A stretch of 64,000 nt of DNA from a virus. Its lineage: Duplodnaviria; Heunggongvirae; Uroviricota; Caudoviricetes. Of this stretch, positions 10,512 to 62,549 are shown piece by piece; the stretch's first letter is position 1, and the number at the start of each line of letters is the position of its first letter. The DNA lies in IMG/VR virus record IMGVR_UViG_3300050581_000228, one strand, 5' to 3'. The translations under genes and the position numbers were made by a program. The notes under the pieces were generated by a model. That model was given only the letters and a program-made list of their open reading frames with translations. It was not told where the DNA came from and made no database searches.

Positions 10512-11080
10512 CACAATCTCCCAAATTGCTCGCCGAGATAACTCATCGGGTCACGGCCGTGCAGCGAGTTCCACGGGCGCGGCACAAGAAGCGACGTGCC
10601 TCCCTGTTCTTGGAAAGCAGCGACGTTCTTATCGCTGTCGTCGATGAGCAGAGCGCCGGGCTTTGCGCAGAGATGCTTAGAAGGTCCGATGAGGAACTGC
10701 CTCTGCATCCATTTCGGAGCACACCGCTGAATCCACTCCAGCTTGCCGGCTAGGCAATCGGGGCTAAGCGTCGGACTGGTCAGGAAGTGGACGTTCTGCT
10801 TCCCGACCCTGGCCTCGGCCCAACCGACAATGAAGCCGAACTCCGGCGAGGGTGGCGTGCTAGCCCACAATTCGCGCGTAATCGAGTTCCAGAAGCCGGC
10901 CGGCGTGAAACGGTCATAACCCGCCAAGCGATTCGCGGCACTTACAATGTCCCAGCCGCACTCGACCGGATAGGCGGAATCATCCGGGTAGTGCAGGCCG
11001 AGATGGTCAAATACGTGTTTGTGGAAGACGTTGGAGACGCCATCAATGTCGAGCAAGATAGCTGTGATCTTTTGGCTCAT
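10511..11080 (-). CDS. HAD superfamily 5'-nucleotidase-like phosphatase (paralog of 3691..4209)
   Basis: Start MSQKITAILLDIDGV. LLIDDSDKNV and LLVPRPWNSL match LLIDD and LCPRPWNSL of the first copy. Confidence 0.6.
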   Translation of the reverse strand: MSQKITAILLDIDGVSNVFHKHVFDHLGLHYPDDSAYPVECGWDIVSAANRLAGYDRFTPAGFWNSITRELWASTPPSPEFGFIVGWAEARVGKQNVHFLTSPTLSPDCLAGKLEWIQRCAPKWMQRQFLIGPSKHLCAKPGALLIDDSDKNVAAFQEQGGTSLLVPRPWNSLHGRDPMSYLGEQFGRL

Positions 11081-11750
11081 TTCTGTACTCCGGGCGTCGA
11101 TCCTTGAGACGCTCGAATAGCTTCTTTCGCCGTTTTGTGATGGTCGAATGACTGGACATGCCGACCGCCTTTGCGATCTCGCTATCCGTGTGCTCAGCAC
11201 TCTTCATCTCGACGATCTTCACGTCGATCTCATCGCGGCAAGATGCCCTGATCTCATCCTCAAGCTCGTGGCCGGCGGCAATGTCAACCGTGGATAGCCG
11301 TGAGAAGCAGGATTCCGTAGCCTTTAGCCCAACTGCTCGTGGAGGCGTAATCGGTTTTCCCTGCTGACGTGCCAGCTTTTGGGTTTCGTGCGGCACAACG
11401 ATTGTTGACTCCTCGTCCGCGACCTTTGCCAAATGATTGTCGATGGCGGTGTAGATGTACCCCGTGGGATTGGGTTTCTTCACGCGGCCCTTCTTTTGCA
11501 TCATGTCAACCGCCTCACACAACCCGACCAGACCTGCTGACACGAGGTCGTCACGGAAGAATGTGAAGTGGGGACACTCGCGCAAAAAGGCTTCCACTCG
11601 CACGATGACGAGCGCCATGTTGCCTTGAATCATCTCGTCGCGCGCGGCTTGGTCGCCTTGAACAAGACGCTCGTAGAGTGCGTTGTTCTTTTCACGCGAC
11701 AATGGCTCGCTGTAGCCCGCAGCCCGACTCTGTTCCAGTAAACTCTTCAT
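11043..11750 (-). CDS. sigma-70 family RNA polymerase sigma factor
   Basis: Region 2-like ALYERLVQGDQAARDEMIQGNMALV. Region 4 HTH SEIAKAVGMSSHSTITKRRKKLFERL. Confidence 0.7.
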   Translation of the reverse strand: MKSLLEQSRAAGYSEPLSREKNNALYERLVQGDQAARDEMIQGNMALVIVRVEAFLRECPHFTFFRDDLVSAGLVGLCEAVDMMQKKGRVKKPNPTGYIYTAIDNHLAKVADEESTIVVPHETQKLARQQGKPITPPRAVGLKATESCFSRLSTVDIAAGHELEDEIRASCRDEIDVKIVEMKSAEHTDSEIAKAVGMSSHSTITKRRKKLFERLKDRRPEYRNEPKDHSYLARH

Positions 11751-15820: not shown

Positions 15821-16139
15821 CGTCATCCTCATCGTGCGGTAGGAATGGACAGCACTCCCAGGCATCTGGATATTCACCTAGTTCCTGGAGCTTTGCCAAA
15901 GCACTCCGAACAGCGAATACGGCGTTGTCGCACTGCTCTTGTGCAACGTGCCATCCTTTACAACGACACACGTCCTCGAAGTCATCTTCACACTCGTAGG
16001 CCACCTCGATAGCGCAGGCATAATCCTGCCAGGCTTGAGCAATGTGACGAAAGCGGCCACATTCACAAGTGAGTCGCCTCACGCGAATCAGGAGACAAGT
16101 GGTGATAGCCAGGAATAGAACACTTATCAGTAGGATCAT
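15813..16139 (-). CDS. hypothetical membrane-anchored Cys-rich protein
   Basis: N-terminal TM segment MILLISVLFLAITTCLLI; acidic C-terminus; several Cys pairs. Confidence 0.35.
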   Translation of the reverse strand: MILLISVLFLAITTCLLIRVRRLTCECGRFRHIAQAWQDYACAIEVAYECEDDFEDVCRCKGWHVAQEQCDNAVFAVRSALAKLQELGEYPDAWECCPFLPHDEDDDE

Positions 16140-16141
16140 GG

Positions 16142-16537
16142 TTATGGCACTTTCGGCCGAGGCGTGAACACCTTGTAGCCGTCCTCGTCGTAGGTCAAAT
16201 CAGAGTAGTAGCGTTTGTCGATGGATCGTTGTTCGGCCTCTTGCTCAAGCATGAACCGCTCGTAACGTTCCTCAGCATCCCACGCCTTCAGTGCTTGCTT
16301 GAGTGTTGGAAAGATGCCCAAGAGCGCGCCCCGGTAGGTGGCCCTAGCGCGATCGCCAACGACCTCAACGCCCTCGCCGAATGGCAGGAGTCGTCGGGCC
16401 TTGGGCGGCGGAATAGGCCGTTTCTGGGCAATCGCTTCCTTGACGGTTTCTGCTTCGTCCTCTTCAAGGCGATAGATCACCTTGCCGTTCGGCAGCTTGA
16501 CAGCGAATTGGAAGTCGTTCTCGTATTGCTCGTACAT
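16142..16537 (-). CDS. hypothetical protein
   Basis: 131 aa ORF with an ATG start; no motif recognised. Confidence 0.4.
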   Translation of the reverse strand: MYEQYENDFQFAVKLPNGKVIYRLEEDEAETVKEAIAQKRPIPPPKARRLLPFGEGVEVVGDRARATYRGALLGIFPTLKQALKAWDAEERYERFMLEQEAEQRSIDKRYYSDLTYDEDGYKVFTPRPKVP

Positions 16538-16547
16538 GGTGTAAGCT

Positions 16548-16670
16548 CAGAGGGCCTCGGCATTCCACACGGCTTCCGCGTGCCACGCGGGTGTCACCGT
16601 TACAGCCTGGCTAAGGCAGTCCTAGTCATTGGCCGTGCGGTCTATAGGTTCAGCGCAGTTGCGCGCCGAG
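16548..16670 (-). ncRNA. candidate structured RNA in the rsr 3' intergenic region (14 bp perfect inverted repeat closing a roughly 95 nt domain; contains UGACUAG)
   Basis: CAGAGGGCCTCGGC at about 16548-16561 pairs with GCCGAGGCCCTCTG at about 16657-16670. The minus-strand RNA contains CAAUGACUAGGAC. Strand is assigned by context. Coordinates carry about 8 nt uncertainty because of the display/ORF-track discrepancy here. Confidence 0.3.
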
Positions 16671-16690
16671 GCCCTCTGATGATTCAGGGC

Positions 16691-18352
16691 CTAGTTGCGA
16701 ATGAAGTCCGCCATGAGGGCGGGACAGGAGGCGTCGAAGCCTACCAGGTCAAGCATCCCAGCGTCGTTCGGATCAGCGATCGTAAACCCGGTGGCCGTCA
16801 TGCCGACAACGATCAGCTTGGCGTTGATGCCCGTGGCCTGACGGTACTGCATGAGGGCCTGACTGGGATGAATCTGCCCGGCCCAGGTCTCGTTGTCCGT
16901 GTAGACCACGAAGGCGTCCACTTCGAGCCGGTGTTCGAGGGCATAGATCATTGGCAGGGCACAGTCGGTCCCGCCCATCGGAATCTGCTCGATTGCCTGG
17001 ATCACGCCGTTGAGGCCCTGCCTCTTGGAGATGTCCACGGGCACCAGTTCGTGTGAGAAGCCGACCACATGCGTCTGCGGCTCGATCTTGTGAGTCACCA
17101 TCGACATGCAGGCGACGGCCTTGCGGCAGTCCAGATGCGTATTGGCCAGGTACTCCCAGCCCATCGACCCTGACACGTCCAGGGCCAACAGATGCCGCTT
17201 GCCGGTCGGCTCGACGGCATCGAAAGCCGAGTAGAAGGCATCCTCCAATGCAGCCGTGACTTGCTGTACCGGCTGCCATGTGAGGCTGCCTTTGATCCCG
17301 TGCCCTTGCCCGTAAGTGTCGGCTGCAATCAGAACGGACAATGGATGCACACGAGCACCTTTGAGCCGTTCGGTGTTGGTGAGCGTGTCGCACACCAGCT
17401 TCGTCGCTAGCGATAATGGCTTGAGCAGGCCCACGCTGGTCATCTTGCCGAGGTTGCGAATCATGGCCGTGGGCGGCAGATTCGGCAGCAAGGCGTCCCA
17501 GACCGCTGGGCTGCCAAGCAGCGTATTCGGCACGTGTTCCAAGGTCAGGCCGAAGGCTTGGATCAGCCGGACGGCCTCCTTCTCGTCACTGGGACCGAGC
17601 TTGTTGATCTCATTGAAGCCGGTGACGATCCGCAGATCACATGAACACGGCGGAAGCTCGCCCTTGGTAATCCAGTGATACAGGGCGTTGTGGTCGGAAT
17701 CAGTCGCCACCGGATGGCTCAGTCGCAGCACGTCGCGGTGCGTATAGCCAGCCCGGTTGCGGTACTTCGTGACTTGATAGGCCAGCTTGTCAGCAGGTTT
17801 CGTGTTGTACCAGACCGCAACCGCTTCACGTAGACCACGGCCCCAGCCGCGCAGTTCTTTGCAGTTGGCGACGAATTGGAACAAGTGCGTTGAAGTTCGG
17901 CACACGTGCGGGACAAAGCCAAGAGCCATGCGCCGAGCCGAATCGTTGTCCATCTGACTGGCCAAGAGTGCCAAAGCGAAGATCGCGGCGTCATTCTTGG
18001 GAGCACGTCCCGACTCGCTGATGGAAACAATCGTATCGACGGTCTGCGTTGGGTTGGCAGCCGCACACTCGATCACCACGGCGGCATTGTCAGCCGTCAA
18101 CTGGCGCTCGCCCACGTAGTAGGTGCCGCCCTCGCTGCCCAAGATCAAGAACCGCTCTAGTCTGCTCCAGCAATCCAGCGTATGGTTGTAGCCACCAGCA
18201 TTGTTCTGCGCCTGGCGTTTGCCAGGGATCGGCAGGCTCTGCGGGGTGACTCGGGACGACACGTGCTTGGCTAGGGTCTTCATCCAACGATCTCCAAGTG
18301 AAAGAATTGGGCGAGGAACTGCCGTGGGTGTCATCATTGCCAGATAACCCAC
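16691..18352 (-). CDS. rsr: Ro60/Rsr-like protein (TROVE-like helical N-terminal region plus C-terminal vWA domain with MIDAS)
   Basis: 553 aa, GTG start. C-terminal vWA HLLALDVSGSMG...GGTDCALPM (DxSxS...T MIDAS) preceded by about 350 aa of helical repeats. Size and architecture match Ro60 orthologs. Y-RNA-like motifs lie on both sides. Confidence 0.7.
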   Translation of the reverse strand: MGYLAMMTPTAVPRPILSLGDRWMKTLAKHVSSRVTPQSLPIPGKRQAQNNAGGYNHTLDCWSRLERFLILGSEGGTYYVGERQLTADNAAVVIECAAANPTQTVDTIVSISESGRAPKNDAAIFALALLASQMDNDSARRMALGFVPHVCRTSTHLFQFVANCKELRGWGRGLREAVAVWYNTKPADKLAYQVTKYRNRAGYTHRDVLRLSHPVATDSDHNALYHWITKGELPPCSCDLRIVTGFNEINKLGPSDEKEAVRLIQAFGLTLEHVPNTLLGSPAVWDALLPNLPPTAMIRNLGKMTSVGLLKPLSLATKLVCDTLTNTERLKGARVHPLSVLIAADTYGQGHGIKGSLTWQPVQQVTAALEDAFYSAFDAVEPTGKRHLLALDVSGSMGWEYLANTHLDCRKAVACMSMVTHKIEPQTHVVGFSHELVPVDISKRQGLNGVIQAIEQIPMGGTDCALPMIYALEHRLEVDAFVVYTDNETWAGQIHPSQALMQYRQATGINAKLIVVGMTATGFTIADPNDAGMLDLVGFDASCPALMADFIRN

Positions 18353-18442
18353 GCGCTTCGGCCCAATGTTTTGCCGGGCAAGGAATGCCGATCGGTGTTT
18401 GTCAACTGAAGGTGAGATAACCGATGCAGCTTCGGCCCGGAG

Positions 18443-18572
18443 GCACGCCGGTAGGACTCGAACCTACGACCACAGGTTCCCTTTGTGATAACGCTCCCGA
18501 TTCGGCCCATCAGGCAAGAGACTCGAAAGCGATTTCTGATACCTGCGCTCTGACCAACTGAGCTACGGCGTA
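18443..18572 (-). ncRNA. tRNA-like gene 1 with about 56-63 nt intervening module inside the anticodon stem-loop (Y-RNA-like/intron-like)
   Basis: Acceptor TACGCCG/CGGCGTG. D-arm GCTC-AGTTGGTCA-GAGC. Anticodon stem CAGGT...ACCTG enclosing 63 nt. Variable loop TGGTC. T-arm GTAGG-TTCGAGT-CCTAC. The insert contains CGCUUUC...UCUCUUGCC...UGGGCCGAAUCGGGAGCGUUAUC. Confidence 0.5.
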
Positions 18573-18581
18573 CACGAGAGC

Positions 18582-18701
18582 GGACACCGGCGGGGATCGA
18601 ACCCGCAACACCCCGTTATCAGCGGATAACGCTTTGCCTTCGGCCCAGAGGGCAAGAGATGGAAAGCGCGTTAGGTGCTTTGCCGATTAAGCTACGGCGT
18701 C
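18582..18701 (-). ncRNA. tRNA-like gene 2 with 49 nt homologous module between the D-arm and an anticodon-arm-like hairpin (loop CUGAUAA, would read GAU)
   Basis: Acceptor GACGCCG/CGGTGTC (one G-U pair). D-arm GCTT-AATCGGCA-AAGC. T-arm GCGGG-TTCGATC-CCCGC. Insert CGCUUUCC AUCUCUUGCC CUC UGGGCCGAAGG CAAAGCGUUAUC, with outer stem CGCUUU/AAAGCG covarying against CGCUUUC/GGGAGCG in gene 1. Confidence 0.5.
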
Positions 18702-18709
18702 CAAATCGT

Positions 18710-18743
18710 TCTCTATTTAAGACGACAGGCGGGGAGGGGTTTT
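18710..18743 (-). promoter_or_regulatory. conserved 34 bp promoter-like motif immediately upstream of tRNA-like gene 2 (identical copy upstream of the 61667 ORF)
   Basis: TCTCTATTTAAGACGACAGGCGGGGAGGGGTTTT here equals the reverse complement of 61609-61643, which lies 24 nt upstream of a plus-strand start codon. Confidence 0.4.
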
Positions 18744-19549
18744 GCCGTCAGATTTTGTCCCGTTTTTGCCAATTCAATGTCCTGATCGAACTCGTCATCG
18801 CTGATATAACCCGCACACCATGCGCCCATCCGCGTAGCGAGACCTTCAAGGCCGGCTTCCAGCAATTGCCCGATGCGGGCATTGATCTCCTCCTTGCCTC
18901 GCCGATACCGGAACTTCCTGCGATACCGAGGGTTGACGATGAGCTTCCGCTTGTGCTTGCCCCGAGCCGCAATGATTTCATCGGCCGCCTGAATTTGCTC
19001 ATCGGCGGGGAGCTTCACGAGGGCATCCACGTCGAGCAAAGTCAGCATCCGGGCGGCGACCTTCTCACGGAGTTCCTCGGGAAGCTCCATGATCCGTAGC
19101 CGCTGATGCACCCACCGCGTATCGCGGTTCATTTCCTGGGCGATCGTCCGCAACGATGTGCCGGCGGGAAAACGACGAGCAATCGCTTGTGCCTGTTCGA
19201 GCGGATTGAGGTCTTCGCGCTCCAAGTTCTCGGTCAGGTTTAGAATCTCTGCCGCACGGTCAGTAAGACCTTGCCGGATGTTCGCCGGGATATTGGTCCA
19301 TCTCAGAAACGTCTTGACCGCCGCCAGACGGCGGAAACCGGCGACCAGGCGGTATGGCTCAATGAAGCCGACCTGACTGTCCTCGCGCCGCTGGAGGATC
19401 ACCGGGATTTCAAGCCCGGCTTGCGCGATGTTGTCGGCCAGCCCCTTCACGGACTGAAACGTGAACACATTGCGGCAATTGAAATCAGGATCGACCCAGA
19501 TGTCGGCCAGCGGAACGTCGTATGCGTCGTAACGACTAAGGCGTTCCAT
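18713..19549 (-). CDS. ParB-like nuclease domain protein
   Basis: Start MERLSRYDAYD. ParB box PYRLVAGFRRLAA (GxRRxxA). Confidence 0.65.
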   Translation of the reverse strand: MERLSRYDAYDVPLADIWVDPDFNCRNVFTFQSVKGLADNIAQAGLEIPVILQRREDSQVGFIEPYRLVAGFRRLAAVKTFLRWTNIPANIRQGLTDRAAEILNLTENLEREDLNPLEQAQAIARRFPAGTSLRTIAQEMNRDTRWVHQRLRIMELPEELREKVAARMLTLLDVDALVKLPADEQIQAADEIIAARGKHKRKLIVNPRYRRKFRYRRGKEEINARIGQLLEAGLEGLATRMGAWCAGYISDDEFDQDIELAKTGQNLTAKPLPACRLK

Positions 19550-19565
19550 AGATACCTCGGTAGAC

Positions 19566-19592
19566 GAAAAACGGCCCGGCCGAAGCCGGGCC
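19566..19592 (-). terminator. rho-independent terminator downstream of tRNA-Asn
   Basis: Minus-strand GCCCGGCTTCGGCCGGGCC followed by GTTTTTCG. Confidence 0.55.
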
Positions 19593-19595
19593 AAA

Positions 19596-19670
19596 GGCTG
19601 CATCGCCTGGGGTCGAACCAGGAACCACAGCATTAACAGTGCCGCGCTCTACCATTTGAGCTACGATGCA
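19596..19670 (-). tRNA. tRNA-Asn (anticodon GTT)
   Basis: TGCATCG-TA-GCTC/AAATGGTA/GAGC-G-CGGCA/CTGTTAA/TGCTG-TGGTT-CCTGG/TTCGACC/CCAGG-CGATGCA-G-CC. Confidence 0.8.
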
Positions 19671-19676
19671 GTGAGA

Positions 19677-20015
19677 CTAGCTCAGGGTATCGGTCACGAG
19701 CGAGTCAAGCGGTACGCTGGCCGAAACGGCGCACTCCCTGCGAGGAAATGGGATGATGTACTCTCGGTCCTCCGGTTTATCTGGGCCGTGAGCGGTCAGG
19801 GCATTGACACCCTCTTTGCCAACCGGCTCATAGGTCTCGCGGAAGATGTCGTCCTTGCAGGGATAAAGTTCGCCCTTAACGCCCTGGACGATCCAATCGC
19901 CAGGCTCGACGATCAAGTCCTGACCGTGAAGTGTCTGGTTTCCGGGGATCACAACCCGCTGCATGACGCGCTCGGCATTGACAACTACGGGCTTCTTACG
20001 AAAGGCAGCAGGCAT
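19677..20015 (-). CDS. hypothetical protein
   Basis: Probable start MPAAFRKKPVVVNAERV; no motif recognised. Confidence 0.4.
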   Translation of the reverse strand: MPAAFRKKPVVVNAERVMQRVVIPGNQTLHGQDLIVEPGDWIVQGVKGELYPCKDDIFRETYEPVGKEGVNALTAHGPDKPEDREYIIPFPRRECAVSASVPLDSLVTDTLS

Positions 20016-25444: not shown

Positions 25445-26326
25445 TCAGCTTGAATTCACGGGCGCATCCAACACCTGCCTTTCTCTACATTGGCGAACTT
25501 TCGCCTCTAGCTCTCGCACGCTGTCTCGATCGAGATGGCAGGCCCAACGCAAGCCCGCATAGAAGCCGTCGAGCGGATTCTGGCACCCCTCGGTTGCGCA
25601 GATCAACGCTCCGACTTGTCTCTTCGCTAGCTCGATCTCGATGTCCTTCATGTGACGAAGATGGCCCTGCGCCCGGAACGGGTCCGAGTAGAAGGCGTCC
25701 ATCTTGCCCTGCTTGACCGCCTCTCTGAATTGCTTGACGCACGCTGCCGCAATGGGCCTGAACTCCCTGGGCGGCGTGATCTTGGCCCGATCCACGTAGT
25801 CCCGTTGCATGGACCGTGGAATCTTGGCCAGCATGTAGGCGTTCTCGATGGGAATCTCGCCCCGATCGACCATCACCTGAATCTCTCTCAGGAGATTGGC
25901 CAGTTCGAGGCACTTCCCGACCCATTTCGGTGACTTGCGGATGAGACAAGCCAACTCGCCTTGGGTCATGCCAGGGTTGCGTAGCAGCAACCTTTTAAGC
26001 TGCTGGGCATATTCGGCCTGCTTCGTCTCCGGCGAGATCGCGTTCGCCTGGAGCATCAGGACCAGAGCCTCGTCATCGCTACACTCCCTGATGATGCAGG
26101 GCAGCGTATCCCGCCCTGCTTCCTTGGCGGCGGCGTAGCGCTGGAGGCCATTGATGATCTCGTAAAGCCCGTCGCCGAAAGGGCGAACAAGGATTGATTG
26201 CAGGACGCCTTTCTCCCGGACGCTCTCGCGCAATTCCAGGTATTCAACGCTGTCCCGATTCACGCCCCGTAGCTTGACCTTCGGCTCCCGCAGGACGTGG
26301 ACCGGCAAGGTCTCCAATCGGTCCAT
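25445..26326 (-). CDS. ParB/Spo0J-like N-terminal domain protein
   Basis: ILVRPFGDGLYEIINGLQRYAAAKEAG matches the ParB N-terminal box. Confidence 0.7.
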   Translation of the reverse strand: MDRLETLPVHVLREPKVKLRGVNRDSVEYLELRESVREKGVLQSILVRPFGDGLYEIINGLQRYAAAKEAGRDTLPCIIRECSDDEALVLMLQANAISPETKQAEYAQQLKRLLLRNPGMTQGELACLIRKSPKWVGKCLELANLLREIQVMVDRGEIPIENAYMLAKIPRSMQRDYVDRAKITPPREFRPIAAACVKQFREAVKQGKMDAFYSDPFRAQGHLRHMKDIEIELAKRQVGALICATEGCQNPLDGFYAGLRWACHLDRDSVRELEAKVRQCRERQVLDAPVNSS

Positions 26327-26356
26327 GCGGGCCTCCGTTGCTTTACTGTCATACCG

Positions 26357-26508
26357 ATACAGTAGGGTAAAAAGACGAAAAATGTGACTGCGACATCGCC
26401 AGCCTCGAAAAAACGTGGAACGAAGGCCGGTTGTAACGCCGCGTCAATTACTGGCCTCTATTGCCATCTGCTTTCGCGGTCACATTTTTCAGGCATTTAC
26501 CCTACTGT
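26357..26508. promoter_or_regulatory. large palindromic element upstream of the primase gene (candidate operator or origin)
   Basis: Arm ATACAGTAGGGTAAAAAGACGAAAAATGTGAC at 26357-26388 faces the inverted arm GTCACATTTTTCAGGCATTTACCCTACTGTA at 26478-26508, with GCCGCGTCAAT between. These are A/T-rich patches in GC-rich DNA. A homologous single-arm module sits at 61486-61561. Confidence 0.4.
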
Positions 26509-26587
26509 AATAGCAGAACAGTTAATTCTCGCCGCTCTGGCAATCCGCGCCCCACTCTGGGGCGTCCTCTATCTAATAGGAGCCACG

Positions 26588-60917: not shown

Positions 60918-61463
60918 TTACGAAGTGGGCAGTCTCAGAAGTTCGCTGCCCCGCGCGGCCTTGACCGTGGGAAACAGCCGATCTGCGATTCGGTCAATGA
61001 TCTCCTCGGAGCCTTCAATGCCTCGAAGCTCCTCGACCACGATCTCGCATATCGACTGCACGAGGCGATAGACGGCTTCCTTCGGAAGGAGTTCGCCCGT
61101 GTTCTGCTCCAAGGCAAGGCACTCTTTCGTGAGCTTGGCCAGCGTCATCAGCAGATTGTTGACGGACGCGCAGCAGCTAAGCAAGCTGGGATCGTTGTTG
61201 ATCTGCCTCTCGACCATCATGTAGGCCAAATCTCGCGCCTCGCGGAGCGACTTGACCCCATTGTGGCCCGAAAGTTCCGCCAGCCGACGCCGGTTGTTGA
61301 TGTCGGCCAACTGCATGAGCAGCCTGCTCTCAGCCTCTTCCGTACTCTTGCCGCCGTGGGCAAGGCAGAACTCGGAGCCGTACTCGGCTTCCCGCCAACA
61401 CTGTTCGTGGGGATAGCTGAACTTGCAGCGGCGGGGGTCGGCCGGGTCCGTCACGAGTTTCAT
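60918..61463 (-). CDS. hypothetical protein with N-terminal Cys/His cluster
   Basis: Start MKLVTDPADPRRCKFSYPHEQCW...FCLAHGG. Confidence 0.4.
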   Translation of the reverse strand: MKLVTDPADPRRCKFSYPHEQCWREAEYGSEFCLAHGGKSTEEAESRLLMQLADINNRRRLAELSGHNGVKSLREARDLAYMMVERQINNDPSLLSCCASVNNLLMTLAKLTKECLALEQNTGELLPKEAVYRLVQSICEIVVEELRGIEGSEEIIDRIADRLFPTVKAARGSELLRLPTS

Positions 61464-61485
61464 GGAACAATTCCTTTCCGTACCA

Positions 61486-61561
61486 ATACAGTAGGGTAAA
61501 ACCGCGAAAATTGTGACGACAGATTCCGAGAATTCCAAGATTTCTGGATTGCCGCGTCAAT
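61486..61561. promoter_or_regulatory. second copy of the ATACAGTAGGGTAAAA..CGAAAA.TGTGAC...GCCGCGTCAAT module
   Basis: ATACAGTAGGGTAAAACCGCGAAAATTGTGAC at 61486-61517 and GCCGCGTCAAT at 61551-61561, homologous to 26357-26448. Confidence 0.35.
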
Positions 61562-61608
61562 CTGCGCCAAAGACGCCAATCCTCCCGATTCGTCCACAAC
61601 GCGACAAT

Positions 61609-61643
61609 GAAAACCCCTCCCCGCCTGTCGTCTTAAATAGAGA
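61609..61643 (+). promoter_or_regulatory. second copy of the 34 bp promoter-like motif, upstream of the 61667 ORF
   Basis: AAAACCCCTCCCCGCCTGTCGTCTTAAATAGAGA, followed by AAGGAG then ATG at 61667. Confidence 0.4.
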
Positions 61644-61666
61644 CACCTGTTTCAAGGAGATCGTTA

Positions 61667-61906
61667 ATGCGACAGTATGTGATCCTCTACAAGAGGGGGC
61701 CTGGCAAAGACTTCACCCGGCTCAATCCCAAGGACCACGGCAACCTCATCGACCATGAAGAAGTCCGGGATGCCATTGAACTGATGCGTCAGCGGCCGTT
61801 TCTCGAAGGAACCTGCATTCGGCTCAACGACGAGTTGTTCAACATCATGTCGCTCAGCCAGAAAACAATGGACCCAAATGCTTTCCTGTTTACGGAGCCG
61901 GCATGA
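61667..61906 (+). CDS. hypothetical protein
   Basis: 79 aa with a strong RBS (AAGGAG). Confidence 0.45.
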   Translation: MRQYVILYKRGPGKDFTRLNPKDHGNLIDHEEVRDAIELMRQRPFLEGTCIRLNDELFNIMSLSQKTMDPNAFLFTEPA

Positions 61907-62121
61907 TCGTCCACATGCTCCGAGACAAGACGACCGGCCTTTACTACCGCCGAAGCAATGGTTGCGGGCCTGGCTGGGTCAAGCAGGAGCGCGGCTCGAT
62001 CTGGCCGACAAGAGGCGGGGCAGGCGCAGCGCTCGGGCACTGCCGAGAGTATGCCCGGCGAACCAAGAAACCGGACACGTTTGAGATCGTTGACTTCGCT
62101 CTGACAGAAAGGCAAGCATGA
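61903..62121 (+). CDS. hypothetical protein
   Basis: 72 aa, ATGA-coupled to the preceding ORF. Confidence 0.4.
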   Translation: MIVHMLRDKTTGLYYRRSNGCGPGWVKQERGSIWPTRGGAGAALGHCREYARRTKKPDTFEIVDFALTERQA

Positions 62122-62189
62122 CTATTGAAGAACTGATGAGCGCAATAAGATAGCCGCCGGTAGGGACGCCGACGGCTATCTCTGCGGAA

Positions 62190-62549
62190 CTACTTGCCCA
62201 CCAACTGGCGCTGCTTGAGATCGCTCCGCACCTGACGAACATCGGTGCGATGAAGTCTCTTGGCAATCTCTTTCGCAACATCCCATGTAATCCCACCTTC
62301 CACGTATGGCACTTCTTTACCCGCGTTCCGTCCCGTATCCGTATCCGTTTCCGAATCCGCCTCCGTGGCCACTGCCTTGGGACGGCGGGAGACCTTGGAG
62401 GCCCGGCCCTTTCTGGCCTTGGCCCTGGTGGTGGCCGTGGATTTGGTTGTGGCTGCTGGCTGCCCAGCAACGGCTCTGAGTTCCTCGACCGTTTCACAGC
62501 GGCATTCCATGCCTCCGATCGTGAAATAGTACAGGCGTCTTCCTTTCAA
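62190..62549 (-). CDS. hypothetical protein
   Basis: 119 aa. N-terminal CRC motif. Basic/Thr-rich linker encoded by a short ccgtatccg DNA repeat. Confidence 0.4.
   Translation of the reverse strand: MKGRRLYYFTIGGMECRCETVEELRAVAGQPAATTKSTATTRAKARKGRASKVSRRPKAVATEADSETDTDTGRNAGKEVPYVEGGITWDVAKEIAKRLHRTDVRQVRSDLKQRQLVGK

Follow-up and report, generated by a model that had tools for sequence, protein, structure and literature searches.

A 34-nt sequence, AAAACCCCTCCCCGCCTGTCGTCTTAAATAGAGA, occurs as two exact copies in the window (the whole 64,000-nucleotide stretch of phage DNA analysed here), at 61610–61643 on the plus strand (copy A, locus A) and at 18710–18743 on the minus strand (copy B, locus B), and we consider it probable that the repeat defines a small, clade-specific class of promoter, present twice in the 72 kb of this phage that can be read. 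When this reading is pooled with one in which the same element is recognised by the host polymerase, a promoter of one kind or the other becomes distinctly likely. Both copies lie on the sense strand and are oriented towards the unit downstream, the core of the element is kept at both loci in related phages, and neither copy has the hexamers of a sigma-70 promoter. From these observations we infer promoter function, an approximate start site and a short list of candidate readers. The first-pass annotation had called the repeat a strong, probably phage-specific promoter; its orientation upstream of two units and the conservation of its core are consistent with the second half of that description, and the word 'strong' has no basis.

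An exact search shifted the start of copy A from 61609, as first annotated, to 61610, and the gap between the element and the ATG at 61667 from 24 to 23 nt. The exact reverse complement that had been reported at 18710–18743 was found in its place, and a repeat finder returned the two copies as a 34-nt inverted pair of 100% identity, 42,866 nt apart. At both copies the identity is cut off sharply at each edge and the flanking sequences are unrelated. Scanning the window for degenerate versions, which the first-pass annotation had proposed, yielded no third copy even with up to three mismatches, nor did a position weight matrix (PWM) scan turn up weaker copies above chance level, whether in the window, over the following 7.9 kb or among unrelated rsr phages. 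No match to the 34-mer arose in 100 dinucleotide shuffles, and two exact copies are far more than chance would give. Exact searches of viral contigs with the 34-mer and with an 18-mer gave 0 matches, as did a search of 185,579 representative genomes with a 20-mer of the motif. The fragment GTCGTCTTA by itself is no more frequent in other rsr-phage loci than chance predicts; one match, in L003, was discarded as lying within coding sequence.

The repeat is not an assembly artefact. In SRR17288838, two Logan contigs match the window at 100% identity and both break within the 34-mer: L083 stops at 61639 and L090 starts at 61614. Such breaks are the behaviour of a de Bruijn graph at a repeat. At locus B, the 34-mer also recurs unchanged in an ENA contig (L098) from a slightly different strain.

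Gene context of the two copies

The phage belongs to an uncultured group: a 10-kb megablast query found no counterpart among cultured phages, and the terminase is only about 25% identical to Herelleviridae terminases. Its coding sequence is compact and organised into a few long operons. A structural block runs on the minus strand from 61463 down to about 30444, a primase block starts near 26580 on the plus strand, and a replication block starts at 26326 on the minus strand and comprises helicase, exonuclease, tRNA-Asn, a ParB-like gene, the RNA array described below, rsr, DNA polymerase, the sigma-like gene, tRNA-Thr and ligase. Beyond the window, a 1.2-kb stretch (L090:6690–7892) has no called genes. 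A second repeat family, here class 2 (the 34-mer being class 1), is found at 26352–26388 (plus), 26479–26509 (inverted) and 61481–61517 (plus), with 84–86% identity between copies and the sequence TACAGTAGGGTAAAA..AAAwTGTGAC, or GTCACAwTTTTC-N7-TTTACCCTACTGTA on the gene strand. Each class-2 copy points into one large operon (replication, primase, structural). On the gene strand the repeat can also be written GTTTTA-N11-TGGTAC, which we take to resemble the group-3 SigB/SigF-type GTTT..GGGTA promoters. Two ParB-like genes flank these elements in different ways, one (25445–26326, minus) directly following a class-2 element and the other (18713–19549, minus) directly preceding the 34-mer. In both divergent control regions a further box, CCGCGTCAAT, lies between the back-to-back promoter-like elements (26439–26448 and 61552–61561, plus); it is kept as CCGCGTCA in the locus-A relatives and may be a regulator site.

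Copy A lies in a 203-bp divergent intergenic region (61464–61666) between the minus-strand structural block and two small plus-strand ORFs, a region in which a rightward promoter must exist. The unit downstream (61667–62121, plus) consists of ORFs of 79 aa (61667–61906) and 72 aa (61903–62121), neither of which has a family match; a ribosome-binding site, AAGGAG, is present at 61654–61659, and the 79-aa ORF (the MRQY gene) is kept in all locus-A relatives. A hairpin with a 9-bp stem, read from the sequence at 62148–62181 between convergent genes, is the likely end of this unit; it was not called by the terminator scan because it lacks a T-run. What had been annotated as a plus-strand gene block after copy A thus amounts to the two small ORFs, closed by this hairpin, and copy A would start a short two-gene operon. 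The 79-aa gene (61654–61666) and rsr (about 18298–18283, minus) have a common ribosome-binding context, GGAGATCGTT(A/CG)ATG.

Copy B is placed differently. It covers the final 10 codons and the TAG stop (18713–18715) of a ParB-like ORF, and its end is separated by 7 nt from tRNA-like gene 2, whose acceptor stem starts at 18702. The earlier description of copy B as directly 5' of that gene therefore holds as to distance and fails as to a clean intergenic gap, since the element overlaps the ParB-like 3' end. The ParB-like gene (18713–19549, minus) matches Pfam HTH_ParB and ParB_N and the PHROG ParB-like family (7e-23). Since the long ORF runs into tRNA-Asn and a hairpin, the start of this gene was set to M29; no promoter of its own is visible. 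A terminator-like hairpin is present at 19593–19572 (minus), with 9 bp (8 of them G-C pairs), a 4-nt loop and a T5 run, which directly follows tRNA-Asn and lies about 20 nt before the ParB-like start codon. It is the sole strong terminator-like hairpin on that strand, and copy B is the first promoter-like element after it.

Downstream of copy B, two tandem tRNA-like genes occupy 18443–18702 on the minus strand (18702–18581 and 18572–18443; Rfam tRNA, 47.4 bits, with a 60-nt insertion). In each, a Y-RNA-type module (GGGCCGAA...GTTATC) replaces the anticodon loop. Four such modules are found within 18702–18300 (minus), starting at 18645, 18507, 18437 and 18363, and two of the four are free hairpins just before rsr (about 18441–18300). 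The Rfam YrlA model matches weakly, at 37.9 bits where the gathering score is 69, and its match spans the junction of the tRNA-like units, so that processing could yield a permuted YrlA or, alternatively, two tRNA-shaped units. The first protein gene after copy B is rsr, the Ro60 orthologue (16691–18283, minus; Pfam TROVE 6.6e-44, vWA_Ro60 2.2e-67), with its start at 18283 taken from a 530-aa gene call in L098.

Adjacency of rsr and YrlA has been reported in over 250 bacteria and in 22 phages (PMC4201824). As in those loci, the array that copy B precedes is on the same strand as rsr and adjoins it; unlike in those loci, the array is tandem, the Y modules sit in the anticodon position and the Rfam YrlA match is weak. 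Promoters were not defined in that study (PMC4201824). Copy B would be an internal promoter at the very end of the ParB-like gene, and its transcript would comprise the tRNA-like/Y-RNA array and rsr. This transcript would probably extend over the DNA polymerase-to-sigma block as well, since the minus strand shows no convincing terminator after copy B: down to about 2200, none comparable to 19593–19572 was found.

Conservation of the element in related phages

Rsr, the ParB-like protein, the sigma factor and the 181-aa protein encoded next to copy A served as queries for fetching relatives, and in 11 related phage contigs a core of the form GTCGTCTT-N2-3-TAGAGG is present at orthologous positions. 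At locus A, eight contigs (L081, L082, L084–L089), whose neighbouring proteins are 59–93% identical to those of the window, have a related element 25–40 nt before the MRQY start codon, with the core pattern GTC(G/A)TC..TA(A)TAGAGG. The elements read GTCGTGTTAATAGAGGA in L082 and L086, GTCATCCTTAATAGGGA in L084, GTCGTCTAATGGAGAC in L087, CGTCTTTGTAGAGGA in L088 and GTTGTCCTAATAGAGAA in L089, with weaker versions in L085 and L081. At locus B the pattern is GTCGTC(T/C)T-N2-3-TAGAG, located between the ParB-like gene and the RNA array, and the elements are GTCGTCTTAGTAGAGG in L001/L092, GTCGTCCTATTAGAGG in L091 and GTCGTCTTTGGTAGAGC in L096. In L098, the 50 nt upstream of copy B contain 9 substitutions, and the 34-mer and the RNA gene that follows contain 0. 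A PWM scan of the 1.23 Mb of fetched loci placed its top scores essentially only at loci A and B of this clade; two of the sites are in the window and none is in the next 7.9 kb.

Among the 11 non-redundant sites, GTCGTCTT is the most conserved block. An anchored alignment also reveals a weakly conserved GAAAnTYC that starts 18–20 nt upstream of GTCGTC, measured start to start. Its A-rich part reads GAAAA and CAAAA in the window copies, and GAAAT (L001, L088), GACAT (L087), GAAAG (L096) or GGAAG (L084) in relatives. The sequence AAGTCCCCT at locus A of L084 and at locus B of L096 is shared with the window, which reads AAAACCCCT; this points to the C-rich half of the 34-mer as ancestral at both loci in this subclade. 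Judged by this alignment, perfect identity over 34 positions is not a property of the promoter class, in which relatives conserve only about 17 nt and a weak upstream block.

The origin of the complete identity is best approached through L081, the closest relative, with 94.5% identity over the neighbouring 10.6 kb. At locus A this contig has a poor core, GTCATCCAAAGGAGGCA, and it lacks nucleotide homology (L081 1340–1538) exactly across window positions 61505–61655, regaining it at the ribosome-binding site, a break that looks like the exchange of a promoter module. The genome of L001 contains no second exact copy of that contig's own version of the element. Taken together, the break and poor core in L081 and the single version in L001 suggest that part of the 34/34 identity probably arose by recent exchange or gene conversion, and this part may reflect such an event rather than function. 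Extending the argument to the whole element, so that the identity would be a functionless by-product of recent duplication or gene conversion, would also fit the sharp edges of the repeat. We regard this as very improbable, because the core is kept at both loci although neighbouring proteins are only 42–86% identical, and because the 34-mer is invariant in L098 beside a fast-changing stretch.

Perfect inverted repeats of 34 bp could alternatively be the crossover sites at which a resolvase-family recombinase inverts the intervening 42.9 kb. In phages, 34-bp inverted repeats flank invertible segments such as the G segment of Mu, and a gene for a 302-aa serine recombinase (Pfam Resolvase) does lie just past the window end, at L090:3581–4489 (equivalent to about 65194–66102 in window coordinates), some 3.5 kb beyond copy A. 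The 34-mer, however, has no dyad-symmetric core: hix/gix-like dyad half-sites were not found in it, and its longest internal inverted repeat is 4–5 nt. At the contig level, the inverted arrangement of the flanked segment was not seen in any of the related contigs (13/13); one order prevails at each locus, namely ParB-like gene, core and RNA array in L001, L091, L096 and L098, and 181-aa gene, core and MRQY gene in L081, L082 and L084–L089. The absence of dyad symmetry and the single arrangement in 13 contigs both argue against a crossover site. Additionally, the core persists at both loci in relatives although their two copies are not identical, and flipping two thirds of a phage genome would have no obvious use. 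We give this explanation very little credence.

Layout of the element and its likely start site

Read as a promoter, the 34-mer would consist of an A-rich –35-like block, (G/C)AAAACCC (GAAAnTYC in relatives), a C-rich spacer, a –10 block, GTCGTCTT, and a start region, TAGAG(G/A). The –35-like block, weakly conserved in relatives, is GAAAACCC in copy A (61609–61616, plus, with the AAC of an ECF-like –35 at 61612–61614) and CAAAACCC in copy B (18744–18737, minus). The putative –10 block, which contains CGTC, lies at 61627–61634 (plus) in copy A and at 18726–18719 in copy B, and the putative start region, TAGAGA, at 61638–61643 (plus) and 18715–18710. Promoters of the sigma-70 family generally have –35 and –10 blocks about 16–19 bp apart and a start 5–9 nt past the –10 element; here the downstream block is strongly conserved, and the weak upstream one is offset from it by 18–20 nt, start to start.

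The start site is suggested by relatives in which a Y-RNA-type hairpin directly follows the element. In L001 and L091, the (A)GAGGGC of the start region pairs with GUCCUC/GCCCUCU to form the basal stem of the first Y-RNA hairpin, and a GNCGAA motif begins 2–3 nt past the start region. GNCGAA sits near the 5' ends of Y RNAs (PMC4201824). The basal stem and the position of this motif together would place the start within TAGAG and GTCGTC at about –12 to –7, from which we infer transcription starts at about 61639 (plus) and about 18714 (minus), at the A or G of TAGAG. With its start there, the 34-mer would span about –30 to +5, the footprint of a promoter.

Parts of this layout could also be accommodated if the 34-mer were not itself a promoter and acted instead as a regulator-binding site, such as an operator for an HTH or ParB-like protein, or as a shared 5' leader or processing signal, for example a site of cleavage that releases the tRNA-like array from RNA reading through the ParB-like gene. 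Copy B would be part of the ParB-like mRNA if transcription reads through, the predicted transcript includes the start region, the –35-like block is weak, and the box CCGCGTCAAT common to both divergent control regions indicates that regulator sites do exist here. Against an operator, the element has no dyad symmetry, which most operators have. Against an RNA signal, there is no stable or conserved fold over the element and no Rfam match: neither copy folds better than shuffled sequence (z –0.8 and –1.6) and nothing in Rfam was found at E≤1 in 61400–62300 around copy A, results on which a structured RNA was rejected as a candidate. Locus A, moreover, offers no other conserved promoter-like sequence upstream of the core, and the apparent two-block layout, with its near-constant offset of 18–20 nt, is typical of promoters. 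An operator, leader or processing signal is accordingly a poor prospect as a replacement for the promoter reading. A possible dyad at locus A, GACGCGAC...GTCGTC, was dropped since its spacing differs at copy B.

As a promoter, the element does not belong to the primary type. The first-pass annotation had seen no good sigma-70 –35/–10 match, and a lax scan for hexamer pairs (TTGACA-N16-18-TATAAT, at least 9/12, with A2 and T6 in the –10) agreed, giving 0 sites in 61300–62300 and 16000–19800 with a consensus that may not be the host's. The 34-mer resembles primary sigma-70 promoters in its position and orientation relative to genes and in its apparent two-block layout, and differs from them in having no hexamer pair at either copy; not being a primary-sigma promoter, it would need an alternative specificity. 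Sigma-28, sigma-32 and sigma-54 consensus sequences showed no fit by eye, and the T4 late motif (TATAAATA) reached 6/8 only in the window, a match that relatives do not share.

The element does resemble ECF promoters, in which an AAC in the –35 and a CGT in the –10 are set apart by spacers of 14–17, as in the GCAAAC and CGTC of Bacillus subtilis sigmaV (PMC5758882). In the window the motif is TGAAAAC (copy A) or GCAAAAC (copy B)-N14-CGTC, with AAC at positions 3–5 and CGTC at 20–23; both thus carry the AAC, the CGT and a spacer in the ECF range (PMC5758882), and with their AAC, CGTC and 14-nt spacing they are like the promoters of B. subtilis sigmaV/W/X/M. This likeness consists of 7 bases and was noticed after several consensus types had been compared. 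In relatives the AAC is not kept, and AAT or AAG stands in its place.

Candidate readers of the putative promoter

The most obvious candidate reader would be the phage's own sigma-like protein. The ORF at 11043–11750 (minus), which the first-pass annotation had taken for a sigma factor, encodes a divergent 235-aa protein of the sigma-70 family by three lines of evidence. Its region 2 matches the NCBIfam SigE/K/F/G models (2e-11), with no Pfam match above threshold. A profile of 10 sigma homologues searched against the PDB finds SigF (1l0o, 1.4e-10, regions 2 and 4.2) and then RpoD/SigA. An AlphaFold2 model (pLDDT 72) matches sigma32, SigA and sigmaS, with sigmaE at rank 47. The protein has a linker of about 80 aa and is, as far as these models go, closer to groups 1–3 than to ECF sigmas. 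A group-4 sigma, built of sigma2 and sigma4 only, would be expected as the cognate of an ECF promoter; unlike in ECF systems, no ECF-type sigma is visible here, and the sole sigma seen is not of this build and matches groups 1–3. The family is narrow, with 10 homologues among 5.8 billion proteins, all of them metagenomic, and no relatives in 185,579 representative genomes.

The proposal, made in the first-pass annotation, that this sigma reads the 34-mer is one we hold tentatively, at somewhat less than even chances. Motif and sigma gene occur together in the window, L001, L096 and L098, a co-occurrence that lies within one clade and says little. That the sigma is not ECF-like, that its gene lies downstream of copy B and that class-2 elements stand at the heads of the operons all argue against a simple assignment of the 34-mer to it. 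In particular, a 34-mer wholly dependent on this sigma would need a bootstrap, such as read-through, since copy B lies upstream of the sigma gene. Class 2 is an equally good candidate target for the phage sigma and, being kept upstream of the 181-aa gene in all relatives, is likely to be the main promoter class of the phage.

These considerations lead to a different division of labour, in which the 34-mer would be an early promoter read by the host holoenzyme and the phage sigma would serve class 2. In the resulting cascade, the 34-mer would make the small early proteins, Y RNAs, Rsr, polymerase and sigma, and the sigma would then activate the three large operons. The class-2 copies do head the large operons and are kept in relatives; the sigma gene is downstream of copy B, past the terminator-like hairpin that would end the upstream operon; and the best PDB match of the phage sigma is SigF, in keeping with the presumed SigB/SigF likeness of class 2. 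Known phage sigmas, moreover, serve middle and late promoters, with early ones using the host sigma (PMC8948821), a division that also favours the host as reader of the 34-mer. The sequence of the element speaks against it: there is no TTGACA/TATAAT-like pair, and GTCGTC, the most conserved block, falls in a region that has few contacts with a primary sigma. To use a host ECF sigma for phage early genes would, in turn, be odd. On balance we think that reading by the host is unlikely, and keep to a clade-specific promoter class of alternative specificity as the better explanation.

Comparison with phages that encode their own divergent sigma, as this one does, cuts both ways. Like the sigma promoters of phiEco32-like phages, the element is short, confined to one clade, unlike the host sigma-70 consensus and present in few copies at operon heads, and it would likewise have its start a short way downstream, 6–9 bp from the element in those phages (PMC8948821). 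The sequences differ, being GTAAtg-N16-aCTA in 7-11 and tAATGTAtA in phiEco32 (PMC8948821), and there are 2 copies here, known from the DNA sequence, against 6–8 in those phages. The copies of the 34-mer are also not before structural genes. In phiEco32 and 7-11 the phage sigma usually serves the late structural operon (PMC8948821), which here is headed by class 2, and this argues against a link between the 34-mer and the phage sigma.

A more specific proposal, and a more doubtful one than the sigma link itself, is that GAAAnTYC-N11-12-GTCGTCTT with a start in TAGAG is the site of an undescribed, narrow family of phage sigmas, group-3-like in build, that would read ECF-like promoters and control a small autoregulated regulon. 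Its members would be the Y RNAs, the tRNA mimics, Rsr and the sigma itself, together forming an RNA-quality-control module.

General concepts would be left unchanged by these findings, since clade-specific phage promoters and phage sigmas are well known, and their significance is modest unless both the sigma link and the ECF-like specificity of a group-3-like phage sigma hold. If the promoter reading is correct, the element would be the first model of a promoter in a clade of uncultured phages, about 90–150 kb in size, that carry Ro60, Y RNAs and tRNA mimics. It would mark the start of the phage Y-RNA transcript and, together with class 2, would give a two-class promoter map of the phage.
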